Origin: an uncultured Rickettsiales bacterium
Lineage (GTDB): Bacteria; Pseudomonadota; Alphaproteobacteria; Rickettsiales; RI-342
Length of the DNA: 64,000 nucleotides
Assembly: GCA_964435165.1 (NCBI GenBank)
Contig: CAYSXY010000002.1
Location: forward strand, 8,126-72,125
Reading direction: 5' to 3'
Part shown: positions 21,573 through 64,000 of the stretch, one piece after another
How positions within the stretch are numbered: position 1 is the first letter of the stretch
How the letters are laid out: each line of letters starts with the position of its first letter
Notes under the pieces: generated by a model
Databases searched by the model: none
Told to the model about the DNA's origin: nothing
What the model saw: the letters and a program-made list of their open reading frames with translations, nothing else
Made by a program: the position numbers and the translations under genes

Positions 21573-21998
21573 TTAGGCGTGTGCCACTTCCTCAGCGTAC
21601 CAGCGGTCCATCTGGACTTGGTCGCCACTCAGGCTGAGTCGCACTGCGGTGCCCGCATTTTTGTACGGGACGACGCTTTCCAGCGGCTTTTCACGCCATG
21701 GCGATGACCTGAAAACACGCCAGTTGCCATTGTCTTCAAGCTGGAGTTTGATGTGGATGTTGTTATCGCCGATAATCGGTTCAACGACTTGGACTTGCTC
21801 CAGCGGCACCAGCACGCTCAACGGCATTTCGTGGGCATATTCGCTTACAGAGTTCGGAAGTACCGTCAGTAGATTGCTGAGGTCTCCAGCCCTCCCTGAT
21901 AGTATTTCCAAGCTATGATTCGACCAGATCGAGAACGTTATATCTCCACCTGCCACATCACCTTTCCTCACTACTAGTTCAATGATCGTTCCTTGCAT
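21573..21998 (-). CDS. hypothetical protein (141 aa)
   Basis: The ATG at 21998 has an excellent SD (aAAGGAGctgtgtcATG). No family recognised. GC is lower than in neighbouring genes. The track ORF extends to 22115. Confidence 0.45.
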   Translation of the reverse strand: MQGTIIELVVRKGDVAGGDITFSIWSNHSLEILSGRAGDLSNLLTVLPNSVSEYAHEMPLSVLVPLEQVQVVEPIIGDNNIHIKLQLEDNGNWRVFRSSPWREKPLESVVPYKNAGTAVRLSLSGDQVQMDRWYAEEVAHA

Positions 21999-22262
21999 GA
22001 CACAGCTCCTTTTGAGTGTGCTATTGGCGGCTTCCTCAAGGGTCGCGCGCCATATTCCATCGATAAACCCTATGACGAACGTCAGAGGGGTAAAGCATGG
22101 GATGCTAGTTATCACAGGAATATGAGGCTTTTATGACAATATTGGGGTTGCCCCCATGCTGTACCTTACCGTCAATGTTTAAGGTTGCGGGAGATTCTTG
22201 CCCTCTTCCCATTAAACCCTTTGTAACCCTTCTTTTATAAGCTGGTGCGTCGACATCACTAC

Positions 22263-22514
22263 ATGGGTTCAACCATGCTTTTATTGCTAATTTTACTGCT
22301 GTTGCCGTCTCCTGCCTTTGCCTATATCGATCCGGGCACCGGCAGCCTCATTTTTCAGGCATTGGTAGCCATGCTTGCCGGGGTGCTGGTGTTTTTCAAC
22401 ACGCTGAAAATCAAGGTATTGCAATGGCTGGGCAAACTGCCTCCACCGGAAGAGAGCGAGGCAGACGATTTGGACCAGCGCCCTTCATCACATAAAGATG
22501 ATCATGTCGGCTGA
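22263..22514 (+). CDS. small membrane protein with YIDPGTGS motif
   Basis: Two hydrophobic helices (LLLLILLLLPSPAFA; LIFQALVAMLAGVLVFF). Overlaps the next gene by 17 nt. The start is uncertain (22245 GTG, 22263 or 22275 ATG). Confidence 0.45.
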   Translation: MGSTMLLLLILLLLPSPAFAYIDPGTGSLIFQALVAMLAGVLVFFNTLKIKVLQWLGKLPPPEESEADDLDQRPSSHKDDHVG

Positions 22515-23883
22515 GCCGCACCCGGCCTCATTTCGTGACCCCAAGGCCCACATATGCTGTCATGACGGGCGCATATTACGCATGTTGACTGACGAGTATC
22601 TGCCGGACTACCGCCAATTGATGGATAGTGGGCTTTATGATGCCTTACAGGAAAAGCAGTGGCTTATTAGCCATCACGAACTCTCAGCCAATGACGCGCC
22701 GGAAGGCGTGGACGCTGCGCTGGTGCTGGAGCATCCCGTCATTCCACTCATCACCTATCCCTATGAATGGTGCTTCTCGCAGTTGAAAGAGGCCGCGATC
22801 CTGACCCTGAAGATTCAGCAATTGGCCATGCGCTGCGATATGGAGTTGAAAGATGCCTCGGCATTCAACCTGCAGTGGCAGGAAGGGCGCTGGCTGCACA
22901 TCGATACGGCGTCGTTCACACGCTATAAAGAAGGGGCGCCCTGGGTGGCCTATCAGCAATTCTGCCGCCACTTCCTCGCGCCACTATTGCTGATGGCTTA
23001 TGGAGACTTACGCGCGAACGCGCTGATGCGCGTCCATCTGGACGGCATTCCGCTGGAGTTGGCCTCCACCCTGCTGCCCTATAAAACCCGATTAAAGCCC
23101 GCTATATTGATGCATATTCACTGGCATGCCCGTTCGTTGCAATCGGCCATGCAAGGTGGGGCAGGCAAGCGCGACCACCAGGTGCCCAAAGCACGACTTG
23201 AAAAGCTCATTGATCACCTGACATTGACGGTTCAGGGTTTGTCGCTTGCCAAGACTCTGACACGCTGGGGCGATTATTATACCGATACCAATTACAGCGA
23301 CGCGGCGCGCCTGCACAAAGAGCAACTGGTGCAGCAATGGGTCGCTGAGATGGCACCCTCCACCCTGTGGGATTTAGGCGCCAATACCGGCCATTACAGT
23401 AAGATCGCGCAAGGACAAGGTGCGAAAGTAGTGGCGGTGGATGAAGACCCGCTGGCGGTTGAGCGGCTCTATCACACCTTGGGGCGTGGCAATGATGCGC
23501 TGCAATGCCTGCGGATTGATCTGACCAATCCATCTCCAGCACTTGGCTGGGCGCATAAAGAGCGCGCCAGCCTGCAGCAGCGCTGCAATGCAGATATGTG
23601 TATGGCTCTGGCCTTAATTCATCATTTGACCATTGGCTGCAACATTCCTTTTTCGCATGTTGCTGGCTGGTTCAGCCGACTGGCGCCAACGCTGCTCATT
23701 GAATTTGTCGATAAAGCCGACTCACAAATTCAGGAAATGCTGCAACACCGCGAAGATGTGTTCAGTGATTACAATCTGGCATCGTTTCGCACTGCCTTTG
23801 GCGAGTATTATGACATCGTGCGCGATGAGCCGATCACAGACAGTCAGCGACGCCTGCTGCTCATGCGTCGTCGTGAGGCATAA
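22498..23883 (+). CDS. class I SAM-dependent methyltransferase with a large N-terminal domain
   Basis: SAM motif I LWDLGANTGHYS, followed by VVAVDEDP. The roughly 280 aa N-terminal domain (ASFRDPKA...) is seen in NoeA-like methyltransferases, recognised from memory. Confidence 0.6.
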   Translation: MIMSAEPHPASFRDPKAHICCHDGRILRMLTDEYLPDYRQLMDSGLYDALQEKQWLISHHELSANDAPEGVDAALVLEHPVIPLITYPYEWCFSQLKEAAILTLKIQQLAMRCDMELKDASAFNLQWQEGRWLHIDTASFTRYKEGAPWVAYQQFCRHFLAPLLLMAYGDLRANALMRVHLDGIPLELASTLLPYKTRLKPAILMHIHWHARSLQSAMQGGAGKRDHQVPKARLEKLIDHLTLTVQGLSLAKTLTRWGDYYTDTNYSDAARLHKEQLVQQWVAEMAPSTLWDLGANTGHYSKIAQGQGAKVVAVDEDPLAVERLYHTLGRGNDALQCLRIDLTNPSPALGWAHKERASLQQRCNADMCMALALIHHLTIGCNIPFSHVAGWFSRLAPTLLIEFVDKADSQIQEMLQHREDVFSDYNLASFRTAFGEYYDIVRDEPITDSQRRLLLMRRREA

Positions 23884-25527: not shown

Positions 25528-25745
25528 GCTATGCCTCATCGCTGAGTCAGTAGACGAAGCGGGAGGCAAAACAAAAAGTGGCCACCAGCCTTGAGCCAGC
25601 CTCATGGGGATGCAACGCATCACCGGAGGCGAACACAATAACTCCAAGCCAGCCTTGATCTGCTCTATGTGGATCCGCACGCCCACTGCAAGCGCTTATC
25701 TCACGTCGAGCATCGCTGAGTCAGTAGATGAAGCGGGAGGTGATA
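25519..25745. repeat. degenerate tandem repeats (about 64-67 bp period) bounded by two 30 bp near-identical copies
   Basis: cagccttgagNNNgcctcat recurs at 25519, 25586 and, degraded, at 25650. catcgctgagtcagtagaYgaagcgggagg occurs at 25537-25566 and 25711-25740 with 1 mismatch. The first unit overlaps the stop codon of the sulfatase-like gene. Confidence 0.6.
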
Positions 25746-25746
25746 A

Positions 25747-25849
25747 TATAGCCATTCACATTAATTTTCATACAATCTGAATGGCTATGAGGCCGCGACT
25801 CCTGCCTGCGCCATAGTTGGCGCGTAAGCCTTAGTGGGAAAAGCTATAG
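25747..25849 (+). repeat. 103 bp dispersed two-hairpin repeat, copy 1
   Basis: 100 of 103 positions are identical to 60165..60267. Hairpin 1 pairs atagccattca (25748-25758) with tgaatggctat (25778-25788). Hairpin 2 pairs tgcgcc with ggcgcg (25807-25824). Confidence 0.85.
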
Positions 25850-25977
25850 TCGTTTAAAGTTAAATGACTATATAAATGTGTCATTGCCGGGCCTGACCCG
25901 GCACAATCCGGATGACTGGTTTGAAAGTAACACGCGATAACGTTGCGATAGAGCAAGGTAAAGCTTCAGGTTTCTCG

Positions 25978-28443
25978 CTATTTCGAGGTGGCGATAAACA
26001 CACCATTCCAGTCAGCCGGTGGTGGTGATATGCGGAAATCAGCAATGCGCTCACGATATAATGCCCAGAAGATATTAAGGTCTGGCCATAATTCCTCGCC
26101 CTTGGCAATTAATTGCTCGGCAACATCAAATTTCTGGCTGCGATAGGCATTGAGCATTTCGGTATTGAGTGTAGAGAGTGCTTTGAAACGGTCACTCGAT
26201 GCCATCATATTGTCACCTAAAATAGCAAAAATACGGACCGGCTCTGTTTTGCCTTTCACCTGAAGCAGGTCAAGTTCGATGATGGCAAAGGTACCATCCG
26301 GTAACTGATTGACGGAATATTCACTGATAACGATATCTACGCCATAGGTTTTCGACTGGCCTTCCAGGCGGGAAGCAAGGTTTACATGGTCACCCAATGC
26401 GGAATAATCAAAGCGCTGGTCAGACCCCATATTACCGACGCAACAATCACCGGTATTGATGCCGATACCAATAGCAATGGGGATATGGGGGCGACCTTCA
26501 TTTTTTGCCTCGCGCTCCATATAGCGATTCATACGGTTTACTTCGTCGATCATATCCAGCGCAGCCTGGCAGCTACGCACCGGGTGGTTGGTCACCGGCA
26601 GCGGGGCATTCCAAAATGCCATAATGGCATCGCCCATATATTTGTCGATAGTCCCTTTATGTTCCAAAATCACATTGGTCATAGGTGTAAGGAAGCGATT
26701 GATGAATTTGGTCAGTCCCTCTGCATCAAATTGCTCCGAGATCGTGGTGAAACCACGAATGTCACTGAATAACAGGGTAATGTTGCGTGTCTCACCCCCC
26801 AATTTGAGCTTGTCCGGGTTATCCGCCAGCTCTTCGAGCAAGGCCGGAGAGACATAGTGAGAAAAGGCCGTTTTGACCTGCCGCCGTTCCTGTTCTTCGC
26901 GGATGTAATTAAGGTAACTCAGGCTGACAGACATGCCGAAGATCACCAGGCTGGGAAAGGCAGCATCGATCAGCATCTGCCGTGTCATATAGTAATGCCA
27001 GGCGGTATAGCACAAAATACTGATGAGACTGACAGAAAGCAGGAAGTTCCATAAAGCACTAAGCCGTGGTACCAGTGCTATCAGGAGCAGGCCGGCGGCG
27101 ATCATCATGCCGAGTTCGATCATAATGGCGAAATCTGGCCGGGTCAGGTGGGTGTGTGAGAGAATATTCTCCAGCACCTGAGCATGCACTTCAACGCCGG
27201 GAAGGGCGCCGTTTATCGGAGTCGCCCGGATATCTTTCAGCCCAATGGCCGAGGTGCCGATAATCGCCAAATGTCCTGCCAGCCGCCGCTCTGGGTGTTT
27301 GACGGTTTTTAAGAGTATATCCGTTGCCGAGACATAGATGGGGTCGGTGATGTTATAATTGGCAAAATGCACCCATATCTCGCCATAAGGCGTGGTGGGA
27401 ATTTCATATCCGCCGCCAAAGCCGCTTTTAACAACAATACTTTCAATACCGCTACCATCTTTGTGGGTTTTGAGGAAATAATCATCTCTTCCTTGCAGGG
27501 CAACGCGGATCATCTCCAGCGTCAGGGCTGGAAATATCTGGTCACCGACACGCGACATTAAGGGCACCCTGCGATAAATACCGTCCTGATCCGGCTGCGA
27601 TGAAAACAAGCCAATCCCGTTCGCGGCCTCTTCAAGCAATGGCAGGTTGCGGATGATACCAGGATAGCGCGGCAGAAATGGCTTTGGGTCATTATTCATA
27701 AAGCCGAAACCAACTTTACGCGGGAGGTTTTCCAGTTGCGTCGGTTTGTGCGTACCCACATGACCCAGTACGACCCGGCTGTTAGCAATAGCTTGACTAA
27801 AAACATCTTCATTGCTCGGAAGTGCGCGTAAAATATCCTGCACGCCGGATTCCAGCCCGTCGATTTCTTCCGCCAGTTTGGGAGGAGACATGCGATCTTC
27901 CTCGGCAAAAATCATATCGAAGCCCACCACCATCACGCCATATTCAGTGAGGTTCTGCACCAGTTGCGCGATGAGGGTACGCGGCCATGGCCATTGACCG
28001 AACTCGCTTAATGATCGATCGTCAATATCAATGATCACCACGCCGGCTTCCATTGTGGATGGGTCTGGCTGGCGCGGTTCAATACGCTGATACATATCGA
28101 ATGTTTTATGGCGCAGCATCTCCAACGTAGGATTGTCGCCTGCATTGACATATAAAATGCCCGCTAAAAAGCCAAAGCCAAGCAGGTAATGGAAGGCCAT
28201 GCCGCGGATCAGGCCGCCCATTTTGCCATAGGCACGCTTCCACAGACCAGGCGATACTTCTTTCTTAGTGCGAGACGAGCGGCGTTGAGACGATGAACTG
28301 CCGCTTCGTCCTGTTGATGAACGACGGTGTGAATGACGACCCTCGCGTGATGACGATGATGAACGCCGCCGTCTGCGGCGCTTCTTCCTATCGCCCTGAG
28401 TTGAATTATCGTCAGCAGAAGGAGCTTTCGGTTCATCGGTCAT
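25978..28443 (-). CDS. CHASE2 sensor domain adenylate/guanylate cyclase (class III)
   Basis: 821 aa. Has a TM helix, a periplasmic domain of about 300 aa, three TM helices, and a class III cyclase domain (ITLLFSDIRGFTTISE, KYMGDAIMAFWNAP, GINTGDCCVGNMGS, ALGDHVNLASRLE). The ATG lies 1 nt after the HlyD stop. Confidence 0.85.
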   Translation of the reverse strand: MTDEPKAPSADDNSTQGDRKKRRRRRRSSSSSREGRHSHRRSSTGRSGSSSSQRRSSRTKKEVSPGLWKRAYGKMGGLIRGMAFHYLLGFGFLAGILYVNAGDNPTLEMLRHKTFDMYQRIEPRQPDPSTMEAGVVIIDIDDRSLSEFGQWPWPRTLIAQLVQNLTEYGVMVVGFDMIFAEEDRMSPPKLAEEIDGLESGVQDILRALPSNEDVFSQAIANSRVVLGHVGTHKPTQLENLPRKVGFGFMNNDPKPFLPRYPGIIRNLPLLEEAANGIGLFSSQPDQDGIYRRVPLMSRVGDQIFPALTLEMIRVALQGRDDYFLKTHKDGSGIESIVVKSGFGGGYEIPTTPYGEIWVHFANYNITDPIYVSATDILLKTVKHPERRLAGHLAIIGTSAIGLKDIRATPINGALPGVEVHAQVLENILSHTHLTRPDFAIMIELGMMIAAGLLLIALVPRLSALWNFLLSVSLISILCYTAWHYYMTRQMLIDAAFPSLVIFGMSVSLSYLNYIREEQERRQVKTAFSHYVSPALLEELADNPDKLKLGGETRNITLLFSDIRGFTTISEQFDAEGLTKFINRFLTPMTNVILEHKGTIDKYMGDAIMAFWNAPLPVTNHPVRSCQAALDMIDEVNRMNRYMEREAKNEGRPHIPIAIGIGINTGDCCVGNMGSDQRFDYSALGDHVNLASRLEGQSKTYGVDIVISEYSVNQLPDGTFAIIELDLLQVKGKTEPVRIFAILGDNMMASSDRFKALSTLNTEMLNAYRSQKFDVAEQLIAKGEELWPDLNIFWALYRERIADFRISPPPADWNGVFIATSK

Positions 28444-28444
28444 C

Positions 28445-29740
28445 TCAACGCTCCCTGAATGCTTCGGAGGTGACTTTAAGCAATGGTTTGAGCAAATATT
28501 GCATCACCGTCTTGCTACCGGTTTTGATATCAGCAGAGGCTTGCATGCCAGGGGTGATAGGCAACTGGCCCGGGAGGTCTCCAAGGTAGTTTTTATTGGT
28601 ACGGATAATCACTTCAAAATAGATTTCACCGGATTTCTCATCCGTGTAGGAATCGGCTGAGACGGATTGCACCGTCCCTTCTAATCCACCAAATCGCATA
28701 TAATCATAGGTATTGACCTTCACCAGCGCATGCTGGCCATTGGTCACAAACCCGACATCATTGGGGTTAAGTCGCGCTTCGACGACAAGATTGTCACTGA
28801 TCGGCACTATTTCCATAATCACCTCTCCGGGTTTGACAACCCCGCCGAGCGTATGATTTTTGAGTGATTTTACCACGCCATCAATGGGACTTTTAATGGT
28901 GGTACGGAGCACCTGATCGGTAGCGCGGGTCAGCATTTCCTGCGAGCGGGCAATTTCCAATTCAGTATCACGCAGCAGTTCCTGCGCCTGGTTTTGATAG
29001 GTCACTTCTTCGCTTCGCAGGCGCTCTTTTGTTTCTTTTAACGCAGCACGTGAACGAGGAATGGCAACGTCAATAATTTCCAAACGACCTGTTAATTCCT
29101 GTACTTCACTCTCTAGCTGAAGGTGGTCGAGTTTCGACGTCAGTTTGTCTTTAATCAACTCGTTGGAAATGCGCATTTTTTCACGCAACACATTCAGGTT
29201 TTTCTTAATGGAGGCGCGCTCGGTCTCCAACTGGGTGACATCCAGTTCTTTTTGTTGCACCTGTTCATGTAATACGCTCAAGCTACTCTCTAACCGGCGG
29301 CGATTGCCTTCAAATGTCATAATTTCCGAGTGTACCAGTTCAGGCCGATATTCCCCATTCTCATTGGGAATGGATAGCCGCTCATCACCTCGTGCTTCAG
29401 CCATCAGGCGCAAGCGCTTGAGTTTTAGGCCTTCCAAATTCACCATTAATTCTTCTTTATTGGCAACAAAGGAGGTGATGTTCAGCTGCATGAGTTCTTC
29501 ACCCTGACTGACATGTCCACCTTCTTTCACGTGGATTTTTTCGATAATACCGCCTTCCAAATGCTGGATGGTTTGAATTTGCTCCTGTGGCACGATTTCG
29601 CCTTGCGCGACAGACACTTCTTCCACACGCGCAAAAAATGCCCACACCATCATCCCGGCCAGTAACATCATGACGAGGCGAGCCATCAGTGGCAGGTTGC
29701 TGCGTGGTGGTTGCTCCAATAATTCATCGAGTTTACTCAC
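28445..29740 (-). CDS. type I secretion membrane fusion protein, HlyD family
   Basis: N-terminal TM helix, lipoyl-like hairpin (GGIIEKIHVKEGGHVSQGEELMQL), a long coiled coil and a C-terminal beta domain ending TVMQYLLKPL. The GTG start overlaps the ABC stop (GTGA). Confidence 0.9.
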   Translation of the reverse strand: MSKLDELLEQPPRSNLPLMARLVMMLLAGMMVWAFFARVEEVSVAQGEIVPQEQIQTIQHLEGGIIEKIHVKEGGHVSQGEELMQLNITSFVANKEELMVNLEGLKLKRLRLMAEARGDERLSIPNENGEYRPELVHSEIMTFEGNRRRLESSLSVLHEQVQQKELDVTQLETERASIKKNLNVLREKMRISNELIKDKLTSKLDHLQLESEVQELTGRLEIIDVAIPRSRAALKETKERLRSEEVTYQNQAQELLRDTELEIARSQEMLTRATDQVLRTTIKSPIDGVVKSLKNHTLGGVVKPGEVIMEIVPISDNLVVEARLNPNDVGFVTNGQHALVKVNTYDYMRFGGLEGTVQSVSADSYTDEKSGEIYFEVIIRTNKNYLGDLPGQLPITPGMQASADIKTGSKTVMQYLLKPLLKVTSEAFRER

Positions 29741-31623
29741 GACGTGCCTCCTTGCCCTGTAGGTGGCATGGGTGCCGCAGGAGTATGTGGCTGTTGCGTT
29801 GCAGGCCCTGATGGTGCTGCTGGTTGTGGCGTGGCTGCGGTGGCTGGTGCCGATGGTTGGGCTGGTGCCGCAGACTGAGGGCTTGCCTGCGTGGTCTGCG
29901 GATGCGCATCATCTGGTTTGCCGCTCAACCTGGCCATCACCTTGTCCCCTGGGCCCATCATGGCAATGCGGCCGCGTTCTAGGACGATAATTCGGTGGCA
30001 CATGGTGAGCAGGGGAATGGAATGCGTCGCCAAAATAATCGTGCGGTGGGTGGCCAGTTCACGAATTGTCTGTGCAAGGCGCATTTCCGCCTCATTATCC
30101 AGATTGCTGGTAATTTCATCAAACAGGAGCACGGGGGGATTTTTCAGCAAAGCACGGGCAATGGCGAGCCGCTGACGCTGACCACCGGAGAGCTTAAACC
30201 CACCTTCGCCAATTTCTGTGGCATAGCCGTCAGGTAAATCACTAATAAACCCATCGGCATCAGCGAGCTTGGCCGCTTTGAGCACGACCTCATCCGGTGC
30301 CTCGGGCCAGGATTTGGTGATGTTATCGCGAATGGTTCCATCGAACAGGAAGCATTCCTGCGGCACATAGCCAACCCATTGCGACAATTGCTCGCGCGTA
30401 AACTGGCTGATATCCGCATTATCCAACAAAATGCGGCCCTTTTGCGGTTCATAAAGCCCCTGCAGACATTTAATCAGCGTGGTTTTGCCGCAGCCATTGC
30501 GCCCAACCAGGGCTGTCATCTCGCCGGGTTGAAACAGGCAACTTACCTCTTCCAATATTGGTTGTTGTGCATCATAGCCAAAGGTGAATTGCTCAACCGC
30601 CATATGTCCCATTGGGCGTTCACGCTCAATACCCGCTTCTTCACGCTCGGAGTCAAGGTGAAATAGCCGGTCCAGCCGAACGATGGCCTGTTTACAGGCC
30701 GCATAATTTTTCCAGTTGCCCAGCAATTGATTGAGTGGGGCGATGATCCGGCTGGCCAGCATATTAGCGGCGATCAGCGAGCCAATGGTCATCTCGCGCT
30801 CAATAATCGCGAGCGCCCCGGTCGTCACCATCATCACGGTGGTGAGCATCATCAGGCTGTGGCCTAAGCTGATGAATCCATCAGTACGCGAGCCGCGCTC
30901 ATAGGCCTGTGTGATGGATTCGGCATGCACATCTTCCCATTTCGGGGCGATGATTTTATCAATCATCAATGCTTTCACCGTGGTGCGCCCGCCCATCAGT
31001 TCGGCGACCATCGCATCGCGGTGCAGGCCTTTATGCCGCTCCTTGGCGGTGTCGACATCCTGCACATGCGATGAAAACCAGGTGAGCAGAAGAAAAAGCG
31101 GCACCACCAGCAGCAACACCCAGGCAATGGGCATGGCGATGATGCAAATCACAACGATGAAAATAATGGCAAACGGCAAATCAGCCAGCAACAATGCCGC
31201 CGGGCCGGAGAAAACACCGCGAACAGTGGCAGCATCCTGAAACAGTGATTGCCAATAGCTGGTGGGGCGCGATTCCAATGTCAGCAGCGGAAGGCTGGTG
31301 AGCTTGTGATAGAGGGCGCGGCCCAGATGCGCGTCAATATGCAGTGCGGTGGATTGCAGCATGCGACTGCGTGCCTGTCGCAATAAATAGTCAAACCCCA
31401 GTGCCAGCAACACCCCCACCACCAGCGCATAGAGCGTGCTGATACCATTATGCCCCACTACCCGGTCATACACTTGCAGGGTGAAGAGCGGTACAGCCAG
31501 CGCCAGCATGTTGGAGAAAAAGGAAACCGCCATCACCTCGCCAAACCGCGGCAATAGGGGACGCAGAATATCTTTTAACCATAGTGCATGAGGTGATTTC
31601 CACCATCCGATCATGATGTTCAA
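29737..31623 (-). CDS. type I secretion system permease/ATPase (PrtD-like, no C39 peptidase domain) with a Pro/Ala-rich C-terminal tail
   Basis: TMD opening FTLQVYDRVV, Walker A GRNGCGKTTL, signature LSGGQRQRLAIARA and Walker B VLLFDEITSNLD. The last 60 aa or so are PQTTQASPQSAAPAQPSAPATAATPQPAAP.... Confidence 0.9.
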   Translation of the reverse strand: MNIMIGWWKSPHALWLKDILRPLLPRFGEVMAVSFFSNMLALAVPLFTLQVYDRVVGHNGISTLYALVVGVLLALGFDYLLRQARSRMLQSTALHIDAHLGRALYHKLTSLPLLTLESRPTSYWQSLFQDAATVRGVFSGPAALLLADLPFAIIFIVVICIIAMPIAWVLLLVVPLFLLLTWFSSHVQDVDTAKERHKGLHRDAMVAELMGGRTTVKALMIDKIIAPKWEDVHAESITQAYERGSRTDGFISLGHSLMMLTTVMMVTTGALAIIEREMTIGSLIAANMLASRIIAPLNQLLGNWKNYAACKQAIVRLDRLFHLDSEREEAGIERERPMGHMAVEQFTFGYDAQQPILEEVSCLFQPGEMTALVGRNGCGKTTLIKCLQGLYEPQKGRILLDNADISQFTREQLSQWVGYVPQECFLFDGTIRDNITKSWPEAPDEVVLKAAKLADADGFISDLPDGYATEIGEGGFKLSGGQRQRLAIARALLKNPPVLLFDEITSNLDNEAEMRLAQTIRELATHRTIILATHSIPLLTMCHRIIVLERGRIAMMGPGDKVMARLSGKPDDAHPQTTQASPQSAAPAQPSAPATAATPQPAAPSGPATQQPHTPAAPMPPTGQGGTS

Positions 31624-31733: not shown

Positions 31734-33284
31734 GTGTGGCGTAGCGTTGATGCTATGGGCGGATGCACAACAGATATTGGTGGTTTGAGTGAGCAGCTAG
31801 CTACGCTGCGGCAGATGCGCGCGGATGATCAGACTGCCTATCGCTCCATGCGCGATGCGGTGATCATCGCCTCGCTTCCACATAGTAGTAATTACAGTAA
31901 AGACCGTGAGCGGGCCTGGTATCAGCGGGCGCGGGCGCGTCAGGGCGACCATGTGGAGACGGTGCTGTATGGTGCCATCTGGGAGGCATTGCGGCCCAAT
32001 GAGCGGCTGGTGATCGAGCAGCTCTATTACGAACATCCGCCGCTGGTGGCCGAGACGACCGGGCTGTATAAAGCGCTTCACGCCTTTGCAGAGGCGCGCG
32101 AGTCCGGCGACACGGCGCTGGCCCGGCAGCATCTACGCCATGCATTGTGGGAGCTGCTGCACAACTCGCCCTACCCGGCGCGTAATGACCTGGAGCGCGA
32201 CAAGGCCAGGCGGCGCCGCACGGCGCAAGCCATGATGCTCAATAGTATGAGCTGCTGTTTAAAGAGCCTGCCCACGCCGGATTATATCATCGAACCATTG
32301 CGGCAGCGCTATGCCAAAATGCCGCTGGAAAACTTATTGCCTGATATTGTGTTTCCGCTGGAGGAAAATGCCCGCACCATCGCCGAGGAAATTCAGCGGA
32401 TTAATGCACAGATGCAGCAGGGAATTGAAAAACTCACTGCCACCGAGCAAAAATCTATTGTCACAGACGCTGTCACCATTCCAGAAGCGACTCATGCATT
32501 TTCTGATCTCTACATGGGCATTGTTGAGACCGGGACTCGCACGCTCATTGATCAGAAGCTCGAAAAACTTGCCCAGCGAGGCTTAAACGAAGCCGAGATC
32601 AGAACAGCTCTCGAAGAAGTCTTGAGCAATCACCAAAATAACACGATCCCCTATAAGACAGAAATGCTCGCCATACATTTTCATGGCAAACTGAACGAGG
32701 TTCGGATGCGACAGGCAGGGCATACGCATTATATGTGGTTGTCCATGGATGACGACCGTGTGCGTTCGAGTCACAGCGCAAATGATGGCCAAATTTTCTC
32801 GTTTGATAATCCGCCACCCACCGGCCACCCCGGCGAAGATTATAATTGCCGCTGTCAGGCTGCACCGGTGCAGTTGGCAGCGCTGAACCTACCGCCTGCC
32901 CTCATTGCCGCCGCCATCGCAGCGACAAAAGCGACCATCAAGCGATCACAGCAAAAGATCAAAGATGCTGCGGCGAAGGTCAGAAAAAATCCTGTGGTGC
33001 GGGGAGAAAAAGCACCTAAAGGCGGCAGGAAAGATACGGACTGGTCATTTGATAAAAATAAGTCTCCAAAAAAATGGGAAAATCAAAAAAGAGAGCGAGA
33101 TTGGACGGATGAGGAGATTACAAAGGCTATAAAGCATGGTGATGCGTATCGAACTGAGAATTACAGAACTAACAAGCCAGCTACCTTATATGAATACAAT
33201 GGAAAGTATGTGGTCAGAGATGATACTACAAAAGAAATCATTCAGATTGGTTGCAAAGGATTTGAGCATCCATCGCTACCATAG
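31734..33284 (+). CDS. MuF (phage Mu F / SPP1 gp7) domain protein with a lysine-rich C-terminal module: candidate polymorphic toxin
   Basis: The MuF signature WLSMDDDRVRSSHSANDGQIFSFDNPPPTGHPGEDYNCRC lies at about 32730-32858. It is followed by a hydrophobic linker (LAALNLPPALIAAAIAA) and a basic, AT-rich tail of about 110 aa. The start is uncertain (GTG 31734 or ATG 31755). Confidence 0.7.
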   Translation: MWRSVDAMGGCTTDIGGLSEQLATLRQMRADDQTAYRSMRDAVIIASLPHSSNYSKDRERAWYQRARARQGDHVETVLYGAIWEALRPNERLVIEQLYYEHPPLVAETTGLYKALHAFAEARESGDTALARQHLRHALWELLHNSPYPARNDLERDKARRRRTAQAMMLNSMSCCLKSLPTPDYIIEPLRQRYAKMPLENLLPDIVFPLEENARTIAEEIQRINAQMQQGIEKLTATEQKSIVTDAVTIPEATHAFSDLYMGIVETGTRTLIDQKLEKLAQRGLNEAEIRTALEEVLSNHQNNTIPYKTEMLAIHFHGKLNEVRMRQAGHTHYMWLSMDDDRVRSSHSANDGQIFSFDNPPPTGHPGEDYNCRCQAAPVQLAALNLPPALIAAAIAATKATIKRSQQKIKDAAAKVRKNPVVRGEKAPKGGRKDTDWSFDKNKSPKKWENQKRERDWTDEEITKAIKHGDAYRTENYRTNKPATLYEYNGKYVVRDDTTKEIIQIGCKGFEHPSLP

Positions 33285-60131: not shown

Positions 60132-60164
60132 CATGTGATCTCTGTCGTGTCTATTACCGTTATT

Positions 60165-60267
60165 TATAGCCGTTCACATTAATTTTCATACAATCTGAAT
60201 GGCTATGAGGCCGCGACTGCTGCCCGCGCCATAGTTGGCGCGTAAGCCTTAGTGGGAAAAGCTATAG
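60165..60267 (+). repeat. 103 bp dispersed two-hairpin repeat, copy 2
   Basis: 100 of 103 positions are identical to 25747..25849. Located 34 bp after the ATP12 stop and about 70 bp before the ABC-like gene. Confidence 0.85.
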
Positions 60268-60335
60268 GCGTATTTCCCGCCATTTCTTGTCGAATAAGAT
60301 ACCCAACGGCTCGATTTTCACCTATATAGCCCGCG

Positions 60336-62080
60336 GTGAAATGGCTGGAGATAAAGGTGCATCAAATCCCTGCAACGGCGAATGAATTATCACAGGAGAT
60401 AAAACGGCTGATATCGCTGATTATCGCCGATGATAATCGGTTGATCGGCCTAGCATTGATTTATGGGATTGGTATCAGCCTGCTGACACTGTCTGTTCCA
60501 ACAGCCGTACAGATGCTGATTAACTCCGTGGTTCATACCACGTCTGTCACGGCAGTGATGACCCTGGCATTTGTTTTGCTGCTACTGCTGTTGGTCTCCG
60601 GCTTGTTTAATGCGGTACAGGCTTACGTCATGGAGCTGTTCGAACGGCGGTTCTATGCGCGCATCACATCGGAATTTACGCTGCGTATTATCTATGCCGA
60701 TCACACCTATTTTGACCGGATCAACCGCTACGAACTGGTCAATCGCTATTTTGACATCATGACGGTACAATCCATCATACCCAATCTCATTGTCGGTTTG
60801 TTCGCGCTCATTCTGCAAATGATCGTCGGATTTACACTAGTCTCGTTTTATCACCCGTGGCTGTTTCTGTTCAATCTGGGTATCATCATCGTATTATACT
60901 TAATCTGGCGCATCTGGGGACATAATGCCATACGGACCGTTTTTCCTTATCGGCGGCGAAATATGCAACCGCCCATCATTTAGAAGATATCGCACGCGCC
61001 AACAGTTTTTTCAAAACCGCGACCCACATCAATCAGGCATTGAAGAAAAGCGACAGCATGACAGGGCGCTATATTCAGGAACGGCGCCAGCATTTTCGTT
61101 ATACCTTTTCGCAGCATGTTGCCTTGCTCCTATTATACGCCGTTGCCAGTGCACTTCTGCTGGGAGTGGGTGGAATTCTGGTGCTGAGGGCAGAATTGAC
61201 CATTGGCCAGCTTGTGGCGGCGGAGCTGGTGCTAACCGCGGTATTTTACGGGCTTTCACGGGCAGGCTATTATCTTCAGCAATGCTATAAGCTGTTTGCC
61301 GCATTAGAAGAAATATCGCTGTTTTTCGATGTGCCGCTCGAAGCAATGGAGGGAACGAAGACGCTGGACTCCACAGAGTCACTGGTCATTTCCTACCGGC
61401 AGGCAGCCTTTACCGAGGGTGAGAAAGAGACGCGATTCAATTTCGAGATCGAGTCGGGCAAAAATATACTGATCAGTTGCCAAAGCCAGTCTTTGGAGGC
61501 GTTACTGCTTGATACGCTCAAATATTATCGCAAACCGGATAAAGGAAGCATTCTGGTCAATGATCATGCGCTGGAAGATTATGATGTACAGCATATGCGT
61601 GGTCAGATTATCATTCAGGACAGACCGACCATTGTGGAATGCACAGTGGAAGAATATCTGCAATTTGCCTCGTCAGAGAAGATCAGCGCAACCGAGATGA
61701 ATCATGTGCTTGCGCTGGTGGAGCTGGATCAGAAGATCGCCTCGTTGCCACAAGGACTAGCCACCAGCCTCACCGTGACCGGGCTGCCGCTGTCTCTGTC
61801 CGAAACCTTGCGCCTCAAACTTGCCCTGGCATTGTTATCGAAGCCCAAAATACTCGTACTGACGGAATTATTCGACATGATTTCAACCAAGCGCCGTAGG
61901 CGGATTCTGGTCCGGCTGTGCGATGAACCGTCCTTTTCAGTGCTGTATGTGTCGAACCGCATCGATGTAGAGATGTTCGATGACTATTTATATGTGGGAG
62001 CCCGGGAACAGATATGGCTGCCTGATGCCAATGCATTAAGGTCAGTGGAAGAAAGCAACGTTGAGACAGCACATGACTGA
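60336..62080 (+). pseudogene. ABC exporter-like protein (TMD + catalytically degenerate NBD), interrupted by a frameshift
   Basis: ORFs 60336..60983 and 61040..62080 together form one ABC TMD-NBD. The two frames overlap at 60926-60983, and adding one T to the T5 run at 60940-60944 restores ...NAIRTVFSLSAAKYATAHHLEDIARANSFFKT.... In the NBD, Walker A is ESGKNILISCQSQSLEA, the signature is LPLSLSE, Walker B is ILVLTELFD and the H-loop is VSNR. Confidence 0.7.
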
Positions 62081-63098
62081 GCCTTTTTTGCCTGAGCATC
62101 GCGCAGCGTTTCGCCAACTACATGCACTCAAAATTCTGTCACGTACCCATGCGGCCGGGCGCATTCTGCTCATCTTCATGCTTAGCATGTTGCTCTTTAT
62201 GATGCTGGTACCATGGGTGCAAACGGCGCCTGGGCAGGGATTTATCACAGCGCTTCATCCGGAAGACAGGGCGCAGCAAATCAGTGCCATGGTACCGGGG
62301 CGCATCCAGCAATGGCATGTACAGGAGGGTAGCGTTGTCAGTCAGGGGGATCCCATCGTTGAAATTCTCGATAATGATGACCAGCTTATCCAGCGGCTGA
62401 TGGCAGAACGTAATGCCTTGCAGCAAAATATTGAGTTGGATCGGATTGCGGCCTAAACCGCGCGATTGGATTATCAGCGCCAGCGCGATTTGCTATCGAG
62501 CCAGTTGAGCGCACCGCGAGATGTAGAAAATGCCAAAATTCGTTACAAATCCCTGCTTGCGACTCTGGAGCAATCCAAGGTGCAGTTAAATCAAATGGAG
62601 GTGCGGCTGGCGCGACAGCAGGCGCAGACATTGCGGGCGCCTCGGGATGGCACGATCACGCGTATTATTGCGGCCAATATCGCAACGTTGGTGAATCAGG
62701 GAGAGCCATTGGCAACCTTTGTGCCAAAAGACAGTGAGCCTGCTGTGGAACTTTATGTCCGCGGTATCGATATTCCGCTGATTTATCCGGGTCGCAAAGT
62801 CCGGCTGGAGTTTGAAGGATGGCCTGCTGTTCAGTTTTCCGGCTGGCCCTCTGCCGCGGTGGGAACGTTCGGTGGTGTCGTGCAGGTGGTGGACCCATCC
62901 GTCACGCCAACAGGCCAGTTTCGTGTGCTGGTGGTGCCGGATCCCGATGATATGCCGTGGCCGGATCAGCAATTTTTGCGGTATGGTGCCCGTGCAAAGG
63001 GCTGGGTGCTGTTAGATGAGGTCAAAGTAGGGTTTGAATTGTGGCGTCAACTCAACAACTTTCCCCCCGTGGCCGTGAGCGATATTCCCGTGCAATAA
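62073..63098 (+). pseudogene. HlyD family periplasmic adaptor interrupted by an in-frame TAA
   Basis: ORFs 62061..62456 (TM helix plus lipoyl hairpin VPGRIQQWHVQEGSVVSQGDPIVEI) and 62466..63098 (coiled coil plus beta domain) are in the same frame. Only the TAA at 62454-62456 separates them (...ELDRIAA*TARLDYQRQRDLL...). Confidence 0.7.
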
Positions 63099-63230
63099 TG
63101 GTGAAGCATGACGCTGCATACACTATCCGCTTGGAACTGGGGTTCATATTTGCTAACTAGGTACGTTACTATTTCTGCAGCATCATTCTGACGCTGCCGC
63201 TATGTCTGAACAGCGATGGAAAGAATCCCT

Positions 63231-64000
63231 ATGCTTGTGAACACTGTCGTGCGTGAACTGGAACATAAACGTGAACTGGCGCGGCTTGGCGGCGGGCAAA
63301 AGCGAATCGATTCTCAGCATGAGCGTGGTAAGCTGACAGCGCGTGAGCGCATTGAGGTGCTGCTGGACGAAGACTCCTTTGAAGAATTCGACATGTTCAT
63401 GGAGCATCGCTGCACCAGTTTCGGGATGGAGAAAAAGCAGATTCCGGGGGATGGGGTGGTGATCGGCCACGGCACGATTAACGGACGGCTCGTCTTCCTC
63501 TACAGTCAGGATTTTACGGTCTATGGCGGGTCGCTGAGTGAGACCAATGCGAAGAAAATCTGTAAAATTCAAGATATGGCCATGCGCAATGGGGCGCCTC
63601 TGATTGGCATTAATGATTCCGGCGGTGCACGCATTCAGGAAGGAGTGGATTCCTTAAGCGGATTTGCCGAAATTTTTCAGCGCAATGTCCTGGCATCCGG
63701 GGTTATTCCTCAATTGTCTCTTATAATGGGGCCATGTGCGGGTGGCGCTGTTTATTCCCCGGCACTGACAGATTTCATTATGATGACGCGTGGCTCTTCT
63801 TATATGTTCGTTACCGGCCCGGACGTGGTGAAAACCGTGACGCATGAGACGGTCAGCCGGGAAGATCTGGGCGGTGCGGATGTGCATACTCATAAAACAG
63901 GGGTGGCTGATCTCGCTTACGATGATGATATTCAGCTGCTCATGCAAACCCGTCGTCTCATCAACTTTCTGCCATTATCAAACAAAGAAAAACCGCCGGT
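63231..64000 (+). CDS. pccB: propionyl-CoA carboxylase beta chain / carboxyltransferase, 5' part (continues beyond the window end)
   Basis: Not in the ORF track because there is no stop in the window. The translation reads [56 protein letters not shown]...[13 protein letters not shown]...[18 protein letters not shown]. An alternative ATG lies at 63216. Confidence 0.9.

Follow-up and report, generated by a model that had tools for sequence, protein, structure and literature searches.

A probably inactivated copy of a widespread three-gene export cassette with a degenerate nucleotide-binding domain in an uncultured Rickettsiales bacterium

ATP-binding cassette (ABC) exporters are defined by the ATP-driven dimerisation of their nucleotide-binding domains (NBDs). 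Tripartite pumps of non-ABC type, such as AaeAB and the FusC/FuaABC-type PET pumps, combine an inner-membrane protein with a HlyD-like adaptor as well as an outer-membrane factor (OMF) that is TolC-like and have no ATPase. The operon organisation of FusC-type systems has been described (PMC11989028), and SbmA has an ABC-exporter-like transmembrane domain (TMD) that is driven by the proton gradient without ATP (PMC8442886, PMC13316013). Here we describe an ABC-exporter-like gene at positions 60336-62080 of a stretch of 64,000 nucleotides from an uncultured Rickettsiales bacterium (the window; assembly GCA_964435165.1, contig CAYSXY010000002.1, positions 8,126 to 72,125 of the forward strand), together with the protein family to which it belongs. 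We consider it about 75% probable that a conserved envelope export cassette of three genes, which encode an ABC-like inner-membrane protein, an adaptor similar to HlyD and a TolC-like channel, is present at this locus as a copy that was inactivated recently. The frameshift in the ABC-like gene is, by all appearances, a recent lesion and separate from the degenerate state of the NBD, which is found throughout the family.

A split ABC-exporter-like gene with a degenerate NBD

The plus strand between 60336 and 62080 has two open reading frames (ORFs) in different frames, which encode one ABC-exporter-like protein of 581 amino acids once the frame is repaired. The ORF of frame 0 extends from a GTG start at 60336 to a TAG at 60981-60983; frame 2 has no stop codons from 60926 (a TAA precedes it at 60923-60925) to a TGA at 62078-62080, with its ORF listed from 61040. 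Both frames overlap only in 60926-60983 and the frameshift must therefore fall into this interval, as had already been recognised in an earlier note on this DNA that was made from the letters alone. With the closest intact homologue as query, tblastn finds two high-scoring segment pairs, 60387-60938 (residues 11-194) and 60947-62059 (residues 198-566); the 8 nucleotides in between (60939-60946, GTTTTTCC) stand opposite three codons of the homologue, a deficit of one nucleotide, and include a run of five Ts (T5, 60940-60944). Adding one T to this run, which is the repair that the earlier note proposed for the TMD, results in the protein of 581 amino acids: it is colinear with the homologues of about 570 amino acids and the alignment is free of gaps at the junction. 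The window has 259 homopolymer runs of at least five nucleotides, 84 of at least six and 18 of at least seven; T5 alone is thus unremarkable, and the lesion is placed by the alignment to the homologues.

The 5' fragment of the gene (60336-60983, plus strand) has homology to the family up to position 60938, comprising the elbow helix, the transmembrane (TM) helices TM1-TM3 and the start of TM4, and is out of frame from there on. The 3' part (60947-62080, plus strand, frame 2) encodes what remains of TM4, then TM5-TM6, and finally the NBD-like domain. With the frame switch between 60938 and 60947 and a TAA codon in the adjoining adaptor gene, the reading frames are disrupted in comparison with those of intact orthologues, which is characteristic of a pseudogene. 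The database call for the ABC-like gene consists only of the ORF from 61058 (P0001, 340 amino acids), and the label "ABC transporter ATP-binding protein" on this fragment is misleading on two counts.

The degenerate NBD-like domain occupies 61370-62077 (plus strand), and a profile of the family, in alignment with ABCB1 and HlyB, sets the equivalences of its motifs. The position of Walker A (GxxGxGKS) is occupied by CQSQSLEA (61478-61501), the position of the LSGGQ signature by LSLSE (61790-61804), the position of Walker B (hhhhDE) by ILVLTE (61850-61867) and the position of the H-loop histidine by asparagine (61955-61957). The profile alignment agrees in all four cases with the earlier reading that Walker A, the signature, the Walker B aspartate and the H-loop histidine are replaced. 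It contradicts the claim that the Q-loop glutamine was kept: the canonical glutamine aligns with D429 (61619-61621) of the LDRP motif, and the neighbouring Q428 is a peculiarity of the window sequence, present in one of 120 family members (the others have L, I or V), so the Q-loop is degenerate too. Of the features of a type IV exporter, Walker A, LSGGQ, the Walker B aspartate, the H-loop histidine and the Q-loop glutamine are all absent.

The repaired protein nevertheless has the six-helix TMD and, C-terminal to it, the NBD fold of these exporters. Pfam detects ABC_membrane (PF00664) with 35.2 bits at a cut-off of 28; ABC_tran (PF00005) reaches 24.3 bits, narrowly under the cut-off of 25, and the profile alignment spans the whole NBD of ABCB1 and of HlyB. 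The NCBIfam exporter models all score far under their cut-offs: 89.9 versus 725.55 bits for TIGR01846, 64.8 versus 693 for TIGR03375 and 62.9 versus 510 for TIGR01842.

The family and its three-gene cassette

A database search returned 1654 matches. The top match is the fragment of 340 amino acids from the same genome; the next-best matches are intact proteins of 550-620 amino acids with at most 55% identity. In a scan of one genome per species, relatives were confirmed at at least 577 genomic stretches (577 of 600 among the matches listed). The relatives among the matches listed belong to the Alphaproteobacteria (Sphingomonadales, Kordiimonas, Caulobacterales and Gemmobacter), the Gammaproteobacteria (Xanthomonas, Alteromonas, Wenzhouxiangella, Woeseiaceae and Halieaceae), the Betaproteobacteria (Hydrogenophaga) and the Myxococcota, and the family gene is also present on 15 sphingomonad plasmids. 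Its members are spread widely over Sphingomonadales, Xanthomonas, Alteromonas and a large number of marine Proteobacteria. A search with the NBD only, against 1.84 billion representatives, gave 658 matches at 1e-10 or better, but family members are intermixed with ABCB-type NBDs from about 1e-23 and the number is no clean count of the family.

A canonical Walker A (G..G.GK[ST]) or LSGGQ motif is present in none of the 120 database members and in none of the 82 sequences of an alignment derived from genomic loci (81 relatives and the repaired window protein). The columns of the former P-loop are variable across the 120 members. The other motif positions have a family consensus of their own, PLSxSE at the signature, LVLN(E/Q) at Walker B, SNR at the H-loop and LDRP at the Q-loop, and conservation extends to the structural positions that flank the motifs (G404, R422, LDRP, PLSxSE..LRLKLA, LFD and YFSNR). 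We compared 14 pairs of closely related species for the ratio of non-synonymous to synonymous substitution rates (dN/dS); dS was unsaturated in 11 pairs for each domain, and in these dN/dS is 0.017-0.110 for the NBD-like domain versus 0.009-0.092 for the TMD. The comparison with orthologues that the earlier note had recommended thus reveals purifying selection on the degenerate domain.

The structure predicted by AlphaFold2 from an alignment of 120 sequences is a full ABC half-transporter with six long TM helices (pLDDT 91.9, pTM 0.86). Foldseek aligns the model over its full length to known exporters: TM-scores are 0.86 for TmrAB (6rai_B) and 0.85 for HlyB (8dck), with TmrAB, HlyB and MsbA spanning 0.83-0.86, at only 15-20% sequence identity (TmrAB, HlyB, PCAT1 and MsbA).

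As far as can be judged from the sequences, the dead NBD is the ancestral and conserved state of a large proteobacterial family rather than the product of decay. The strong purifying selection on the dead NBD-like domain argues that it is a conserved, folded and functional non-catalytic module, in line with the predicted structure. The suggestion of a "pseudo-ATPase scaffold undergoing decay" in the earlier note had merged two separate matters: the term pseudo-ATPase is appropriate, but the loss of the NBD motifs is not decay, given that canonical motifs are absent from all members of both sequence sets and that dN/dS is low. Orthologues with canonical motifs, which that note had considered as an alternative, did not occur in either set.

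The ABC-like gene is followed by a gene for a HlyD-like adaptor (about 346 amino acids) in 81 of 81 distinct loci of relatives, and in 80 of these a gene for a TolC/OEP-like OMF (about 470 amino acids) comes next, mostly with overlapping stop and start codons. The loci thus have the co-occurrence of ABC protein, membrane fusion protein and OMF that is typical for type I secretion, and the RefSeq annotation shows the same trio in N. aromaticivorans pNL2. The one locus of the 81 without an adjacent OMF gene is that of an intact relative from the Myxococcota (L011). When the ORFs from 83 loci were clustered, only the three cassette genes proved to be widely conserved, and there was neither a second conserved ABC gene nor a conserved cargo gene. 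A cluster of LysR-type regulators recurs in 26 loci, and in about 20 the regulator gene is the immediate upstream neighbour of the cassette, in either orientation (for example L008 6787-7662, L016 3011-3922, L077 6926-7861 and L082 6989-7888); these regulators are closest to OxyR (179.7 bits, under the cut-off of 329). The adjacent regulator suggests regulated efflux of a small molecule. The cassette in the window has no flanking LysR-type regulator; the ORF upstream is ATP12-like, as assigned from its sequence.

In L011 (10875-13392, minus strand) the cassette is followed by a flavin reductase gene and an acyl-CoA-dehydrogenase-like gene, and in N. aromaticivorans pNL2 (L084 10203-11177, plus strand) a gene of the acyl-CoA dehydrogenase family stands directly after the cassette; this shared neighbour may be a coincidence.

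We found no description of this ABC-like family in the open-access literature, where absence falls short of proof, and it is not described in a Chem Rev review of tripartite systems; the family appears to be previously undescribed. The pumps of a Zymomonas paper are different ones.

The cassette of the window and alternative explanations

In the window, the gene for the HlyD-like periplasmic adaptor (62073-63098, plus strand) overlaps the end of the ABC-like gene, and an in-frame stop codon (TAA, 62454-62456) interrupts it. In the closest relatives this position is glutamate (in others glutamine, alanine or arginine), and a single change from GAA to TAA thus explains the stop. At the position that is occupied by the OMF gene in 80 of the 81 loci of relatives, there is a gap of 117 nucleotides (63099-63215) and then an unrelated carboxyltransferase gene. 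The gap contains no convincing remnant of an OMF gene, just a TAATG stop-start overlap and an ORF of 20 codons, and there is no OMF homologue and no paralogue of the ABC-like gene within the window. The two broken genes have retained 74 of 76 and 73 of 75 of the residues most conserved in the family, with two deviations each compared with a family median of one, which is a normal value for intact members. Since almost all residues conserved in the family are kept in both genes, the inactivation is likely to be recent. The GC content at third codon positions is like that of the neighbouring genes, which likewise fits a recent inactivation, and there is thus no sign of recent horizontal transfer. 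For this genome the message is a modest one: the cassette is probably being lost.

The best of the competing explanations, which we regard as unlikely, is an error of sequencing or assembly: the true genome would have T6 and, in the adaptor gene, a sense codon in place of the TAA, with a cassette that is intact and functional. The main argument for such an error is the near-perfect conservation of the two genes, which look freshly functional; moreover, the frameshift sits in a homopolymer and the sequence is known from one genome and sample. However, the Logan assembly of run SRR7048223, which was made independently, matches the window with 100% identity over 60239-64000 (3762 nucleotides), T5 and TAA included. 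The adaptor lesion is a substitution and not a homopolymer indel, and both lesions are in one operon, from which the OMF gene is missing as well. No further broken genes came to light in the 64-kb window, despite the 84 runs of at least six nucleotides and the 18 of at least seven. Elsewhere, long ORFs fill the window densely, among them EF-G, a ClpB-type AAA+ protein, a block that resembles a ribosomal protein operon in the sizes and order of its ORFs, and an ORF that is RarA-like in sequence. An error process that hits T5 but spares the longer runs is unlikely. The homopolymer sequencing error that the earlier note had listed among its explanations is therefore disfavoured by the identical assembly and the intact longer runs, with the reservation that the pristine state of the sequence would fit it.

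Some observations weigh against a recent inactivation of the cassette. The NCBI and Logan assemblies may stem from one and the same run, in which case their identity does not prove T5. The broken genes are otherwise like functional members of the family, and this fits two assembly errors as well as a very recent mutation. Finally, the intact relative L011 has no adjacent OMF gene either, and the absence of this gene alone does not indicate decay.

Considerably less probable than an error is that the protein with the dead NBD is the silent half of a heterodimer. The earlier note had advised a search of the genome for an ATP-competent partner; within the window, a regular expression scan did find a canonical ABC exporter (Walker A GRNGCGKT, LSGGQ), encoded together with its own HlyD-type adaptor: an LssB-type ABC permease/ATPase of a type I secretion system (T1SS) at 29737-31623 on the minus strand. 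Exporters with one degenerate site do exist, for example TmrAB and TM287/288. However, neither the canonical T1SS gene nor any other second ABC gene is conserved along with the cassette in the 81 loci, the canonical T1SS is provided with an adaptor of its own, and the family of the dead protein has lost both the Walker A/Walker B/H-loop side and the signature side, which means that neither composite site would be consensus.

We see very little room for a phase-variable or recoded gene, another explanation raised in the earlier note, in which slippage on the T-run, either of the DNA, in transcription or by -1 ribosomal frameshifting, would restore the full-length protein in a fraction of the population or of the transcripts. 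A -1 shift on TTT (from 60942-60944 to 60941-60943) would yield exactly the repaired protein, but frame 0 (ACC GTT TTT CCT) has no X XXY YYZ heptamer. Known contingency and slippage tracts are far longer than T5. In the relatives, the ORF is unbroken and has no T-run at this site, and the adaptor, with its non-homopolymer lesion in the same operon, would require a separate readthrough of its stop codon. Furthermore, a search of JGI metagenomes for either allele gave 0 matches, and thus no T6 allele.

A lineage-specific decay of the NBD, with canonical ATPases as orthologues, would be compatible with the frameshift and the dead motifs of this one gene and with nothing beyond them, and it is refuted by the same degenerate motifs in 120 of 120 database homologues and 81 of 81 genomic orthologues and by dN/dS values of 0.02-0.11.

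A repeat of about 110 nucleotides is present in two intergenic copies in the window (25745-25855 and 60163-60275, plus strand, about 97% identical), the second of which ends 60 nucleotides upstream of the start of the ABC-like gene. A 33-mer, at 25811 and 60229, is exactly the same in both copies, where chance alone would give 0. When folded, the repeat forms three or four strong hairpins (-47.6 kcal/mol, z = -4.4), and an Rfam search of the window, repeat included, had no matches. The Logan contig breaks inside the repeat, which suggests that the genome has more copies. The repeat could be an element similar to miniature inverted-repeat transposable elements (MITE) or repetitive extragenic palindromes (REP), or a small RNA.

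The canonical T1SS ABC gene is part of an apparent same-strand operon of three adjacent genes (25978-31623, minus strand). Its adaptor gene (28445-29740, minus strand) encodes a HlyD-type T1SS adaptor that scores above its cut-off, and the third gene (25978-28443, minus strand) a protein of 821 amino acids with a CHASE2 domain and an adenylate/guanylate cyclase domain. Divergent from this operon is a gene (31734-33284, plus strand) for a protein of 516 amino acids in which a phage Mu F/SPP1 gp7-like domain is fused to a colicin E5 ribonuclease domain at the C-terminus, which is how MuF-type polymorphic toxins are built. Three further ORFs have no Pfam match at E <= 0.001: 22498-23883 (plus strand, 461 amino acids), 22245-22514 (plus strand, 89 amino acids) and 21573-22115 (minus strand, 180 amino acids). 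All window proteins that were looked up form singleton clusters at 90% identity, and the identity of EF-G to other sequences, which are Rhodospirillales-like, reaches 82% at most, indicating that the genome has no close sequenced relatives.

Powering of intact members and comparison with known systems

In every member examined, the residues for ATP binding and hydrolysis are missing on the P-loop side as well as on the signature side. With both sides dead, there is no consensus ATP site, neither in a homodimer nor in combination with a canonical partner. Intact members would thus most likely be ATP-independent inner-membrane components of a tripartite exporter, which may obtain energy from the proton-motive force or act as a gated conduit. 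The probable role of the NBD-like domains would be that of a clamp for dimerisation, structural or regulatory, by which the coupling helices are held: the coupling-helix motifs (ELFERRFYAR and NRYFDI) and the core of the helical subdomain are conserved, and this suggests that the NBD-like domains are still mechanically attached.

Invariant polar residues (Q59, H173, Q292 and E297, the latter two within GQLVAAEL) are located near those ends of TM1 and TM6 that are predicted to be periplasmic and in the turn between TM3 and TM4, with the helix boundaries taken from the model; P55 belongs to the same invariant cluster. These residues are candidate sites for proton coupling or for contacts with the substrate or the adaptor. 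The substrate is probably a small molecule, because the loci have no conserved cargo gene and frequently a LysR-type neighbour.

We tentatively propose, as a serious possibility somewhat short of our favour, that the family represents an undescribed class of tripartite envelope exporters, with a homodimeric protein of type IV fold that has lost the use of ATP, is energised otherwise, through the proton-motive force or in the manner of a gated conduit, and uses its NBD as a clamp. Two points speak against this proposal: the ATP independence is something we infer, which leaves room for non-canonical nucleotide binding or an unlinked energising partner, and the ABC ATPase of the canonical T1SS is encoded 30 kb away in the window. 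A large family under selection in hundreds of species, including plant pathogens (Xanthomonas) and degraders (Novosphingobium, Sphingobium), that keeps the whole fold and both partners and has no ATP site raises the question of what powers it.

Among the described systems, T1SS of the HlyB-HlyD-TolC (E. coli) and LssB/PrtD type resemble the family in the type IV fold of the ABC protein, with a family profile that covers HlyB residues 142-686, and in the operon, which also encodes a HlyD-like adaptor with one TM helix and an OMF that is TolC-like. There are several differences. The family has no N-terminal C39 or C39-like domain, the alignment starting at HlyB residue 142; all motifs for ATP binding and hydrolysis are lost, with scores far under the NCBIfam cut-offs; the adaptor is short and nearer to RND/MacA-type adaptors, and the loci have no conserved gene for RTX proteins or other cargo. 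MacAB-TolC is also an ABC-type tripartite efflux system with an adaptor of similar size, and MacA is a weak match to the family adaptor, but MacB has a type VII fold with an active N-terminal NBD and is unrelated to the TMD of the family.

The heterodimeric exporters TmrAB, TM287/288, BmrCD and CydDC include the best structural match (6rai_B) and are a precedent for non-catalytic sites. They differ in that one of their sites is still consensus and the degenerate site binds ATP too. The family, in contrast, has no competent site: compared with TmrAB-type heterodimers the P-loop lysine, the signature, the Walker B aspartate and the H-loop histidine are all gone, and the protein is encoded by a single gene and presumably forms a homodimer.

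PET pumps of the AaeAB and FusC type share the tripartite order, the absence of an ATPase and often an adjacent LysR-type gene, but their inner-membrane component is of an unrelated fold. SbmA/BacA (SLiPT) proteins are similar by functional analogy, as ABC-like TMDs that operate independently of ATP. SbmA has no NBD, is an importer and acts without adaptor and OMF, whereas the family keeps the NBD fold and both partners. After SbmA, the family could be the second case to connect primary with secondary transport, here in an exporter that spans both membranes.

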